From NCBI RefSeq assembly GCF_002854065.1, contig NZ_CP024147.1: 64,000 nucleotides of DNA; one strand, 5' to 3'. Below the pieces are notes generated by a model. The model worked only from the letters and a program-made list of their open reading frames with translations. It was not told where the DNA came from and did not search any database. This document shows, piece by piece, positions 26,533 to 29,740 of this stretch (position 1 is its first letter; each line of letters begins with the position of its first letter). Both the position numbers and the translations under genes were made by a program. This stretch comes from Escherichia coli. GTDB lineage: Bacteria; Pseudomonadota; Gammaproteobacteria; Enterobacterales; Enterobacteriaceae.

Positions 26533-27765
26533 ATGTCGTCATTTGATTACCTGAAAACTGCCATCAAGCAACAGGGCTGCACGCTACAGCAGGTAGCTGA
26601 TGCCAGCGGTATGACCAAAGGGTATTTAAGCCAGTTACTGAATGCCAAAATTAAAAGCCCCAGCGCGCAAAAGCTGGAGGCGTTGCACCGTTTTTTGGGG
26701 CTTGAATTTCCCCGACAGAAGAAAACCATTGGTGTCGTATTCGGTAAGTTCTACCCGCTGCATACCGGACATATCTACCTTATCCAGCGCGCCTGTAGCC
26801 AGGTTGACGAGCTGCATATCATTATGGGTTTTGACGATACCCGCGACCGCGCGTTGTTTGAAGACAGCGCCATGTCGCAGCAGCCCACGGTGCCGGATCG
26901 TCTGCGCTGGTTATTACAAACTTTTAAATATCAGAAAAATATTCGCATTCATGCTTTCAACGAAGAGGGCATGGAGCCGTATCCGCACGGCTGGGATGTG
27001 TGGAGCAACGGCATCAAAAAGTTTATGGCTGAAAAGGGGATTCAGCCGGACCTGATCTACACCTCGGAAGAAGCCGATGCGCCACAGTATATGGAACATC
27101 TGGGGATCGATACGGTGCTGGTCGATCCGAAACGTACCTTTATGAGTATCAGCGGTGCGCAGATCCGCGAAAACCCGTTCCGCTACTGGGAATATATTCC
27201 TACGGAAGTGAAGCCGTTCTTTGTACGTACCGTGGCGATCCTTGGTGGCGAGTCGAGCGGTAAATCCACCCTGGTAAACAAACTTGCCAATATCTTCAAT
27301 ACCACCAGTGCGTGGGAATATGGTCGCGATTATGTCTTTTCACACCTCGGCGGTGATGAGATCGCATTGCAGTATTCCGATTACGATAAAATCGCGCTGG
27401 GCCACGCACAATACATTGATTTTGCAGTGAAATATGCCAATAAAGTGGCGTTTATTGACACTGATTTTGTCACTACCCAGGCGTTCTGCAAAAAGTACGA
27501 AGGGCGTGAGCATCCGTTCGTACAGGCGTTGATTGATGAATACCGTTTCGATCTGGTGATCCTGCTGGAGAACAACACGCCGTGGGTGGCGGATGGTTTA
27601 CGCAGCCTCGGCAGTTCGGTGGATCGCAAAGAGTTCCAGAACTTGCTGGTGGAGATGCTGGAAGAGAACAATATCGAATTCGTGCGGGTTGAAGAGGACG
27701 ATTATGACAGCCGTTTCCTTCGCTGCGTGGAGCTGGTGCGGGAGATGATGGGGGAGCAGGGATAA
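26533..27765 (+). CDS. nadR: Bifunctional NMN adenylyltransferase / ribosylnicotinamide kinase / repressor NadR
   Basis: 410 aa from MSSFDYLKTAIKQQGCTLQQVADASGMTKGYLSQ (HTH) with two nucleotide-binding domains. Confidence 0.93.
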   Translation: MSSFDYLKTAIKQQGCTLQQVADASGMTKGYLSQLLNAKIKSPSAQKLEALHRFLGLEFPRQKKTIGVVFGKFYPLHTGHIYLIQRACSQVDELHIIMGFDDTRDRALFEDSAMSQQPTVPDRLRWLLQTFKYQKNIRIHAFNEEGMEPYPHGWDVWSNGIKKFMAEKGIQPDLIYTSEEADAPQYMEHLGIDTVLVDPKRTFMSISGAQIRENPFRYWEYIPTEVKPFFVRTVAILGGESSGKSTLVNKLANIFNTTSAWEYGRDYVFSHLGGDEIALQYSDYDKIALGHAQYIDFAVKYANKVAFIDTDFVTTQAFCKKYEGREHPFVQALIDEYRFDLVILLENNTPWVADGLRSLGSSVDRKEFQNLLVEMLEENNIEFVRVEEDDYDSRFLRCVELVREMMGEQG

Positions 27766-27798
27766 CCGCGATGAAACGGCTCAAAGGCGAGGTATAAA

Positions 27799-27966
27799 AT
27801 GAGTTTTTTTGATGAGTTGAAAACCTCTCTGGAAGAGGCTGTCGAGATTAAACAAGGTTTGAAAGAACCAGCACGGATGACCCGCTACGAAATTGCGGAT
27901 GCTAAGGCTGTTGTAGACCGGAAAAGGTGTTCACGCCGCATCCGGCATTCGGTGCTCAATGCCTGA
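27799..27966 (+). other. 55-codon ORF with good SD; last ~15 codons are REP-derived; possible remnant of an HTH-antitoxin-like gene
   Basis: MSFFDELKTSLEEAVEIKQGLKEPARMTRYEIADAKAVVDRKRCSRRIRHSVLNA*; SD ggcgagg 8 nt upstream; not in the ORF track because it is under 60 aa. Confidence 0.3.
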
Positions 27967-28065
27967 TGCGACGCTTACCGCGTCTTATCAGGCCTGGAGA
28001 TTCACAACGTATTGAAATTTCTTGGTTTGTAGGCCGGATAAGGCGTTCACGCCGCATCCGGCATT
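27917..28065. repeat. REP/BIME elements between nadR and ettA
   Basis: gaaaaggtgttcacgccgcatccggc ... gcctgatgcgacgcttaccgcgtcttatcaggcc ... gccggataaggcgttcacgccgcatccggc. Confidence 0.8.
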
Positions 28066-28072
28066 TTACGCA

Positions 28073-29740
28073 TTACTTCGCAATACGCTTGTACTTGATA
28101 CGCTTCGGCTCCAGTGCGTCTGCGCCCAGCGTGCGTTTCTTGTACTCTTCGTACTCAGTAAAGTTACCTTCGAAGAACTCAACTTTACCTTCATCCTGGT
28201 AGTCCAGGATGTGCGTGGCGATACGGTCGAGGAACCAACGGTCGTGCGAGATAACCATCGCACAGCCCGGGAACTCCAGCAGGGCGTTTTCCAGCGCGCG
28301 CAGGGTTTCGATATCCAGGTCGTTGGTTGGTTCGTCGAGCAGCAGCATGTTGCCGCCAACCTGCAGCAGCTTCGCCAGATGCAGACGACCGCGCTCACCA
28401 CCGGAAAGTTCACCAACGCGTTTACCCTGATCAACCCCTTTAAAGTTAAAGCGGCCAACGTAGGCGCGGCTTGGCATCTCGGTGTTGCCGATCTTCATAA
28501 TATCCAGCCCGCCGGAAACTTCTTCCCAAACGGTTTTGCTGTTATCCATTGAGTCACGGAACTGATCAACCGATGCCAGTTTCACCGTTTCACCTAAAGT
28601 GATGGTGCCGCTGTCCGGCTGTTCCTGACCAGAGATCATACGGAACAGGGTCGATTTACCCGCGCCGTTCGGACCGATGATCCCGACGATTGCCCCTTTT
28701 GGGATCGAGAAGCTCAGGTCATCAATCAGCAGGCGATCACCGTAGGATTTACGCAGGTTGCTGACTTCCAGCACTTTATCGCCCAGACGCGGTCCAGGTG
28801 GAATAAACAGTTCGTTGGTTTCGTTACGTTTCTGATATTCGGTGCTGTTCAGCTCTTCAAAGCGTGCCAGACGTGCTTTACCTTTCGACTGGCGGCCTTT
28901 AGTTCCCTGACGTACCCACTCCAGCTCTTTCTCGATCGACTTACGACGCGCCGCTTCTTGTGAAGCTTCCTGCGCCAGGCGCTGATCTTTCTGCTCCAGC
29001 CAGGAGGAGTAGTTGCCTTCCCACGGAATACCTTCACCGCGGTCAAGTTCGAGGATCCAGCCTGCAACGTTATCGAGGAAGTAACGGTCGTGAGTAATCG
29101 CCACAACGGTGCCTTCGAAGTCGTGCAGGAAGCGTTCCAGCCAGGCCACGGATTCGGCATCCAGGTGGTTGGTCGGTTCGTCGAGCAGCAGCATGTCTGG
29201 TTTTTCCAGAAGCAGGCGGCACAACGCCACGCGACGACGCTCACCACCGGAGAGGTTAGCGATTTTCGCGTCCCAGTCCGGCAGACGCAGCGCATCCGCC
29301 GCACGCTCCAGCTGTACGTTCAGGTTATGACCGTCGTGAGCCTGAATGATCTCTTCCAGACGGCCTTGTTCAGCGGCCAGCTTGTCAAAATCGGCATCCG
29401 GATCGGCGTACAGCGCATACACTTCATCCAGGCGTTTCAGGGCGTTAACCACTTCAGAAACCGCTTCTTCAATGGACTCACGCACGGTGTGTTCCGGGTT
29501 CAGCTGCGGTTCCTGCGGCAGATAACCAATCTTGATGTCTGGCTGCGGACGTGCTTCACCTTCGATGTCTTTATCAATGCCCGCCATAATGCGCAGCAGG
29601 GTAGACTTACCCGCGCCGTTCAGACCCAGGACACCAATTTTTGCCCCAGGGAAGAAACTCAGAGAGATGTTTTTCAAAATATGACGTTTCGGCGGAACAA
29701 CTTTGCCGACACGATGCATGGTATAAACGAATTGAGCCAC
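28073..29740 (-). CDS. ettA: Energy-dependent translational throttle EttA (ABC-F ATPase)
   Basis: 555 aa; two ABC cassettes (GLNGAGKST, GPNGAGKST; LSGGERRRVAL, LSGGERGRLHL). Confidence 0.95.
   Translation of the reverse strand: MAQFVYTMHRVGKVVPPKRHILKNISLSFFPGAKIGVLGLNGAGKSTLLRIMAGIDKDIEGEARPQPDIKIGYLPQEPQLNPEHTVRESIEEAVSEVVNALKRLDEVYALYADPDADFDKLAAEQGRLEEIIQAHDGHNLNVQLERAADALRLPDWDAKIANLSGGERRRVALCRLLLEKPDMLLLDEPTNHLDAESVAWLERFLHDFEGTVVAITHDRYFLDNVAGWILELDRGEGIPWEGNYSSWLEQKDQRLAQEASQEAARRKSIEKELEWVRQGTKGRQSKGKARLARFEELNSTEYQKRNETNELFIPPGPRLGDKVLEVSNLRKSYGDRLLIDDLSFSIPKGAIVGIIGPNGAGKSTLFRMISGQEQPDSGTITLGETVKLASVDQFRDSMDNSKTVWEEVSGGLDIMKIGNTEMPSRAYVGRFNFKGVDQGKRVGELSGGERGRLHLAKLLQVGGNMLLLDEPTNDLDIETLRALENALLEFPGCAMVISHDRWFLDRIATHILDYQDEGKVEFFEGNFTEYEEYKKRTLGADALEPKRIKYKRIAK

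Follow-up and report, generated by a model that had tools for sequence, protein, structure and literature searches.

Chromosomal orphan antitoxins have been proposed to act as anti-addiction modules, for example the Erwinia chromosomal ccd against the ccd of the F plasmid. These examples are complete antitoxins or complete toxin-antitoxin (TA) pairs, and cross-neutralization has been demonstrated for them. In V. cholerae HigA2 (VcHigA2), the antitoxin of HigB2, residues 1 to 37 form an intrinsically disordered, toxin-neutralizing segment, and a peptide of residues 3 to 22 alone binds HigB2 with picomolar affinity and neutralizes it (PMC5416850, PMC8438204). For the gene considered here, nadS, expression of the K-12 BW25113 copy under laboratory conditions was reported in 2025 from a PIRT-Seq transposon-reporter screen, which its authors describe as the first laboratory evidence (PMC12350097). 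The text supplements of that paper contain no nadS entry, nadR is not mentioned in an enterobacterial microproteome preprint, and we found no relevant work in the literature on the "NadS family" or on the HigB2-type pair of strain CFT073.

We analyzed a 64,000-nt stretch of Escherichia coli DNA (here, the window), in which the gene order is radA, nadR, a 307-nt gap, ettA, and slt. The gap contains a 55-codon ORF (Table 1), and the translation given for it in a first-pass annotation, made from the sequence alone, is an exact match to ours. That annotation placed the start 34 bp after nadR; the A of the ATG is indeed base 34 after the nadR stop, with 33 nt intervening. The strong Shine-Dalgarno (SD) motif that it described, GGCGAGG, is present at 27786-27792 (core GAGG at 27789-27792), but the spacer to the ATG is 6 nt rather than 8. 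The ORF also ends within a REP element as described, although REP sequence supplies 17 codons plus the stop rather than about 15.

Table 1. Coordinates of the features between nadR and ettA and of the two flanking genes (positions in the window).
Feature	Position	Strand	Description and basis
nadR CDS	26533..27765	+	410 aa; ORF list, RefSeq annotation of identical-sequence strain and of K-12
Toxin gene 3' remnant (HigB2-like, PF06296)	27771..27797	+	Last 8 codons + TAA (27795-27797); CFT073 alignment
nadS ORF	27799..27966	+	55 codons from ATG (27799) + TGA (27964-27966); PGAP nadS, NCBIfam NF041265
Native nadS part, codons 1-38	27799..27912	+	Homologous to disordered toxin-neutralizing N-terminus of HigA2-type antitoxins
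REP-encoded tail	27913..27966	+	17 codons VDRKRCSRRIRHSVLNA + stop; replaces HTH-encoding half of nadS
REP unit a	27911..27949	+	TTGTAGACCGG...CCGGCATT; direct repeat family D1, 92% identical to unit c
REP unit b, palindromic	27955..27999	.	GCCTGATGCGACGC...GCGTCTTATCAGGC; inverted repeat I2, 20-nt arms, 80% complementary
REP unit c	28027..28065	+	Just beyond ettA stop; mostly common to intact-cassette strains
ettA (yjjK)	28073..29740	-	Convergent neighbor bounding the locus; ORF list, RefSeq

When positions 27740-28100 were compared by megablast with 5,426 complete E. coli genomes, the PGAP label at the ORF was "nadS: NadS family protein." PGAP annotates nadS of K-12 as a 55-aa CDS (WP_000007444.1), and in a strain identical to the window over 361 nt it annotates nadS as a 114-nt pseudogene ("incomplete; missing C-terminus"). 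The exact 55-aa protein of the window is present on at least 1000 contigs in public protein collections. The feature is thus already known, from annotation pipelines and one expression study; what we add is its explicit assignment to the HigB2/HigA2 type, the exact breakpoints, including a toxin tail that supplies the ribosome-binding site, and population evidence for decay. We consider it very probable that the ORF descends from a higA2-like antitoxin gene and is a relic that is still translated while it decays. The first-pass annotation had left a relic and an independent small protein side by side; the first is favored by a partial family match and by the intact pair found elsewhere, and an independent functional protein is disfavored by start loss, frameshifts, a deletion, and pN/pS values of about 1.

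The ORF product scores 69.4 bits (E = 2.5e-19) against the NCBIfam equivalog model for NadS (NF041265), which passes the curated cutoff of 60 bits. The match is partial, with ORF residues 1 to 46 aligned to positions 1 to 46 of the 94 in the model, and falls short of full length; the intact NadS of CFT073 scores 182.6 bits against the same model. With this intact protein as the query, tblastn detects the window at E = 2.9e-20. Pfam returned nothing for the 55-aa product, even at E values up to 10; this is because the helix-turn-helix (HTH) has been lost, and it is uninformative alone.

The intact 94-aa NadS has a C-terminal HTH_3 domain (residues 35 to 79, Pfam), and among proteins of solved structure it is best matched to V. 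cholerae HigA-2, by the single sequence at E = 2e-6 over the HTH half only. A profile built from 40 NadS family members matches VcHigA-2 at E = 5e-18 over its full length (residues 3 to 101), with the N-terminal helix included. In the profile alignment, F3, F4, and E13 of NadS stand opposite L6, F7, and E16 of VcHigA2, and a segment homologous to the HigA2-type neutralizing segment (VcHigA2 residues 3 to 33) is present in the window ORF. Residues 1 to 26 of the window product are identical to those of intact CFT073 NadS. The C-terminal XRE HTH through which HigA2-type antitoxins dimerize and bind DNA is absent from the product; REP sequence has replaced the HTH_3 region (35 to 79). The resemblance of the first ~38 residues to the N-terminus of HigA2-type XRE antitoxins, proposed in the first-pass annotation, is therefore substantiated by the N-terminal half of NF041265 and by the VcHigA2 profile match.

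These matches bear directly on the idea that the ORF arose by chance from intergenic and REP sequence and has no protein-coding ancestor. Its last third is REP, REP elements often make spurious ORFs, and the Pfam search was blank; against this stand the NF041265 and tblastn E values and an alignment, codon by codon, to the intact gene at the same locus that extends to the upstream toxin tail. We regard a chance origin as refuted by homology (NF041265, the CFT073 alignment, and tblastn) and as having next to no probability.

Among the NCBIfam models, the second best for intact CFT073 NadS is NF007481 (PRK10072, a 96-aa "HTH-type transcriptional regulator"), at E = 1.6e-12 over residues 6 to 91 and below its cutoff. 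Several NadS proteins are named "YiaG" by JGI. Judging from these sequence relationships, another stand-alone HigA2-like paralog may exist in E. coli.

In CFT073, the interval between nadR and ettA encodes a 110-aa RelE/ParE family toxin (WP_001298496.1) followed after 1 nt by the 94-aa NadS (WP_000007436.1), and E. fergusonii has a toxin and NadS pair between the same two genes. Unlike the window copy, nadS of CFT073 and E. fergusonii runs on into the HTH (94 aa). The CFT073 toxin matches PF06296 at 2.1e-8 (Pfam), and its best match among solved structures is V. cholerae HigB-2 (8e-16). NadS lies 1 nt 3' of a PF06296 toxin gene in CFT073, E. fergusonii, Hafnia, Leclercia, and a Col plasmid of Citrobacter, and the pairing was seen in six independent contexts. 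The pair occupies unrelated chromosomal sites in Hafnia and Leclercia, and the Citrobacter Col plasmid that carries it is mobilizable and 5.2 kb in size. Members of the toxin family occur on 870 plasmid records. The toxin of the Col(Ye4449) plasmid is WP_077295872.1. When we scanned viral contigs using a tight NadS alignment, we found three loci, two of which have a toxin homolog 5' of NadS. Because the pair occurs at unrelated sites and on plasmids, NadS is not tied to nadR. From its sequence context, NadS is the putative antitoxin of a mobile HigB2/HigA2-type cassette, and its name merely reflects the landing site in E. coli.

On this evidence, it is highly improbable that the ORF encodes a small protein acting with NadR or in NAD metabolism. 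The ORF does lie directly 3' of nadR, probably on one transcript, and the PIRT-Seq authors name nadR as one of the genes accompanied by a co-conserved small protein (PMC12350097). However, the full-length members in Hafnia, Leclercia, Pectobacterium, and plasmids are not beside nadR, a PF06296 toxin precedes NadS elsewhere (Hafnia, Leclercia, plasmids), a large fraction of the E. coli genomes with an intact nadR either carry a disrupted ORF or lack it, and the sequence of the ORF is that of an antitoxin N-terminus. We rejected a NadR partner protein given that family members elsewhere are not linked to nadR.

Other NadS loci show further arrangements. In Pectobacterium brasiliense (L009 and L010, 3001-3285), a full-length, 94-aa NadS-family protein is encoded alone between cas3 and cse1 of a type I-E CRISPR-Cas locus, with cas3 ending 55 nt upstream. 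No toxin homolog was detected in this cas locus by tblastn, and by its sequence the P. brasiliense NadS is a predicted orphan HigA2-like HTH protein within the cas operon. On a Leclercia contig from a JGI metagenome (L007, 2803-3285), at the same chromosomal site as that of the Leclercia pair (L008), the toxin gene is absent and full-length NadS is kept; toxin loss with antitoxin retention therefore recurs in the NadS family. Upstream of NadS on this contig, GTAC-containing motifs (GTGTACAGGGTACC) resemble GTACTTAGTAC and GTACAATGTAC, which lie 5' of the CFT073 toxin gene. By sequence resemblance, these motifs are candidate operator sites. Upstream of the CFT073 toxin, GTAC-N3-GTAC motifs are visible by eye; a scan for inverted repeats with a minimum seed of 6 nt, for which these motifs are too short, detected none, and no consensus promoter was found for the CFT073 cassette.

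Aligning the window with CFT073 defines what has been lost. The window is without about 395 bp of the CFT073 sequence, made up of the cassette's 5' intergenic region (L003, 2602-2692) and toxin codons 1 to ~102. A 4-5-nt junction separates the nadR stop from the surviving toxin tail, which is identical to the end of the CFT073 toxin CDS (...T-K-L-L-K-G-E-I-stop) at 24 of 27 nt and which holds the SD of nadS. The upstream junction, TAA-CCG(C/T)-GA, is common to all remnant alleles that we sampled. The first-pass annotation had remarked that there is no room for a toxin gene upstream; this is true here, with only the last 27 nt remaining, and tblastn found no toxin homolog anywhere in the 64-kb window. 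At the other end, homology to intact nadS stops after codon 38, nadS codons 39 to 94 are missing, and identity to CFT073 resumes inside REP unit c (CGCCGCATCCGGCATTTTACGCATTA). The earlier statement that no HTH follows downstream agrees with the REP sequence from 27913 onward and with the lack of a Pfam match in the product. The window thus contains neither the two intact genes nor the autoregulated promoter and operator that a functional type II TA module has.

The sequence that replaces the 3' half of nadS has the properties of REP elements, namely imperfect palindromic units of ~35 nt, of the GCCGGATG/CATCCGGC type, that are clustered and multicopy. With the REP units included, the 361-nt query had a median of 38 match places per E. 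coli genome. Unit b forms the central hairpin of a predicted fold of -67.6 kcal/mol (z = -4.0). The REP-encoded tail of the protein is variable among strains through REP indels (variants P0210, P0222, P0257, and P0263).

The Rfam model RF02564 (naRNA4, "nucleoid-associated noncoding RNA 4") matches the plus strand at 27916-27994, with 69.1 bits against a gathering score of 59.5. On the plus strand, the gathering score is passed at 27916-27994 and 28032-28069, and the opposite strand scores 44.5 bits. Since RF02564 was built from a REP cluster, the match marks a REP homolog rather than a distinct sRNA gene. Two further short ORFs in this region are wholly or largely REP: one of 33 aa at 27956-28057 on the minus strand and one of 91 aa at 27927-28202 on the plus strand, which runs antisense into ettA. 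Both look like typical REP-generated spurious frames.

We found no credible nadS promoter in the window (the sole promoter-like match near nadS, which ends at the ATG, is no better than expected by chance) and no terminator-like site between the nadR stop and the nadS ATG. We propose the following history for the locus. A two-gene type II cassette, with a PF06296/HigB2-like toxin gene followed by nadS, would once have been intact between nadR and ettA. A deletion of ~395 bp would have removed the 5' intergenic region, where a promoter would be expected, together with all but the last 8 toxin codons, and, in a separate event, REP/BIME sequence would have replaced the HTH-encoding 3' half of nadS after codon 38. 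The remnant, lacking a promoter of its own, would have been placed in the 3' untranslated region of nadR, with nadS mRNA presumably arising by nadR read-through, which we infer, and the original SD inside the toxin-gene end would let translation continue. Because the SD has been kept from the toxin-gene end, nadS should still be translatable from nadR read-through transcripts. The predicted product would consist of 38 native residues, corresponding to the disordered toxin-binding segment, followed by a basic, REP-encoded tail of 17 residues. Lacking a cognate toxin, a DNA-binding domain, and the cassette upstream region, this product is most likely drifting, with no function maintained.

The complete E. 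coli genomes that we surveyed (n = 5,426) show several states of the locus. At least 80% of the intact cassette is present in 674 genomes, the toxin tail and the 5' part of nadS alone in about 4,290, and no match to the cassette query was found in 464 (about 9%). An allele in which the ATG has become ATA and 1 nt has been deleted from a T run, so that the original frame reads ISFLMS-stop, is present in 1,884 genomes (35%), a lower bound because only exact matches were counted; these genomes may descend from one or a few events, and the count therefore reflects dispensability in a large clade rather than many independent losses. The exact window-type ATG start region is present in at least 1,336 genomes, which we count against the relic reading. 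Further alleles have a TTG start with several replacements or a 10-nt internal deletion. In an ST131 strain, nadS is absent, and the nadR-ettA gap of 120 nt holds only REP units b and c. The common upstream junction suggests a single, early deletion of the toxin gene, after which the antitoxin gene degenerated along several routes; we infer this order from the shared junction.

In three strains, the nadS breakpoint lies at ~codon 42 rather than at codon 38 (JNE21-003, L004 3060-6170; 67-1, L014 1531-3145; and GON1437, L021 1500-3159). These alleles are followed by an island on the opposite strand that encodes a GNAT acetyltransferase, a DUF1471/YdgH-family protein, an SRPBCC protein, an SDR oxidoreductase, and an aldo/keto reductase, and ettA is outside the sequence stretch retrieved for these strains. 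In Trp01, a K-12-derived E. coli laboratory strain (L015, 1471-2245), nadS is cut after ~codon 13 and joined near creA. The block from ettA toward creA is missing in Trp01, which looks like an engineered or laboratory-acquired deletion.

We compared substitution patterns between remnant and intact alleles. Intact orthologs from E. coli, Hafnia, Leclercia, and Pectobacterium have pN/pS values of 0.09 to 0.15, for the whole gene and for codons 2 to 38 alike. Intact NadS is identical in amino acid sequence in two E. coli strains despite the cassette DNA being 97.9% identical, and the E. fergusonii protein differs from that of E. coli at one residue. Among five frame-intact remnant alleles, pN/pS is 0.7 to 1.4 in eight of the nine defined pairs, where counts are small (1 to 3 synonymous and 3 to 7 nonsynonymous differences per pair); the value for the window and the allele of E. 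coli JNE21-003 (L004) is 0.28. Each remnant compared with the intact allele gives 0.28 to 0.85, the window again giving 0.28. The features of a conserved, functional small protein, in which the frame, the start, and purifying selection are kept, were not found: the ATG>ATA change and the frameshift occur together in 1,884 genomes, and pN/pS among the remnant alleles is near 1.

The intact nadS of E. fergusonii (L011 and L012, 3001-3285) differs from that of CFT073 (L003, 3027-3311) at 3 of 285 nt, a pS of about 0.03. Between the E. coli remnant alleles and the intact one, pS is 0.08 to 0.12 over 38 codons. These distances suggest that the intact cassette may have been exchanged recently between lineages and that the remnant would be old.

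Replacements occur along the whole protein. Across 27 database variants of the 55-aa protein, 4 of 19 positions vary in residues 2 to 20, 8 of 18 in residues 21 to 38, and 8 of 17 in the REP tail; the variants within residues 2 to 20 include F4L, E6A, E13K, and E13G. Residual constraint is hinted at solely by the mild deficit of changes in the helix segment, which is statistically unconvincing. We count the lower number of changes in helix codons 2 to 20 than in codons 21 to 38 against the relic reading, with the small counts in mind. The PIRT-Seq expression of the K-12 allele likewise counts against that reading, since it means that the ORF is not silent.

These observations raise an alternative in which truncated NadS, translated from the nadR transcript, would act as an orphan mini-antitoxin that neutralizes incoming HigB2-like toxins of plasmids and mobile elements. 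Several facts are consistent with such a role: VcHigA2 peptide 3-22 alone binds and neutralizes HigB2 (PMC5416850, PMC8438204), window residues 1 to 26 equal those of intact CFT073 NadS, and F3, F4, and E13, the counterparts of VcHigA2 L6, F7, and E16, are kept. Toxins 81% identical to the CFT073 toxin occur on small mobilizable Col plasmids of Enterobacterales, and the first 18 residues of the Col-plasmid NadS differ from the window at one position. In addition, the K-12 allele is reported to be expressed (PIRT-Seq, PMC12350097), and the helix segment is somewhat less variable than the remaining protein. However, 35% of complete E. coli genomes carry the start-less, frameshifted allele and about 9% are without the remnant, pN/pS among remnants is near 1, and rare variants occur at hotspot-equivalent residues (F4L, E6A, E13K, and E13G). 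The VcHigA2 hotspot Arg4 is without a counterpart because the NadS N-terminus is 3 residues shorter, the REP-encoded tail is not conserved, and just 33 Escherichia plasmid records match the toxin family, mostly at <60% identity. Weighing these points, we think a mini-antitoxin role unlikely. If it did exist, some E. coli lineages would be shielded from post-segregational killing by HigB2-like toxins of Col-type plasmids or mobile elements, and the ORF would be a natural version of the minimal neutralizing peptide defined in vitro for V. cholerae HigA2, that is, a natural case of antitoxin minimization with consequences for plasmid maintenance.

Taken as a decaying relic, the ORF matters mostly for annotation. 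Readers could take the name nadS, and the listing of the ORF as "co-conserved" with nadR, to mean that it acts in NAD metabolism, but our results favor a piece of antitoxin left behind by a mobile HigB2/HigA2-type cassette. More generally, an ORF may be translated, have a strong ribosome-binding site, and score above the cutoff of a curated family model and yet be a relic in decay.

Compared with known systems, the intact cassette is like VcHigB2-HigA2 (PDB 5JAA, 5J9I; Hadzi et al. 2017, PMC5416850) in having the toxin gene first. In both VcHigA2 and intact NadS, the C-terminal XRE/HTH_3 domain is preceded by an N-terminal segment, which binds the toxin in VcHigA2 and is predicted to do so in NadS; the window ORF is the counterpart of this segment. 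Sequence identity between VcHigA2 and NadS is low, and NadS has 3 fewer residues at its N-terminus and a linker ~7 residues shorter. Unlike VcHigB2-HigA2, the window copy is without a toxin, an HTH, or a cassette upstream region. With the CFT073 pair, the window shares the nadR-ettA site, residues 1 to 26, and the SD/toxin-tail sequence before the ATG; CFT073 has one partial REP, whereas the window has three REP units. The nadS of K-12 (WP_000007444.1) has the same truncated 55-codon architecture, REP-encoded tail, and position as that of the window, and its native part differs by four amino acids (E23K, M27V, Y30H, and A33E).

Like the antitoxins proposed as anti-addiction modules, the window nadS is chromosomal, is not linked to a toxin, and has relatives on plasmids; in contrast to them, it is a fragment that shows decay and is known from sequence. 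The three REP units between the convergent nadR and ettA, with their stable predicted structure, are as found for REP/BIME elements, but the REP sequence here abuts a truncated CDS and gives it its last 17 codons and stop.
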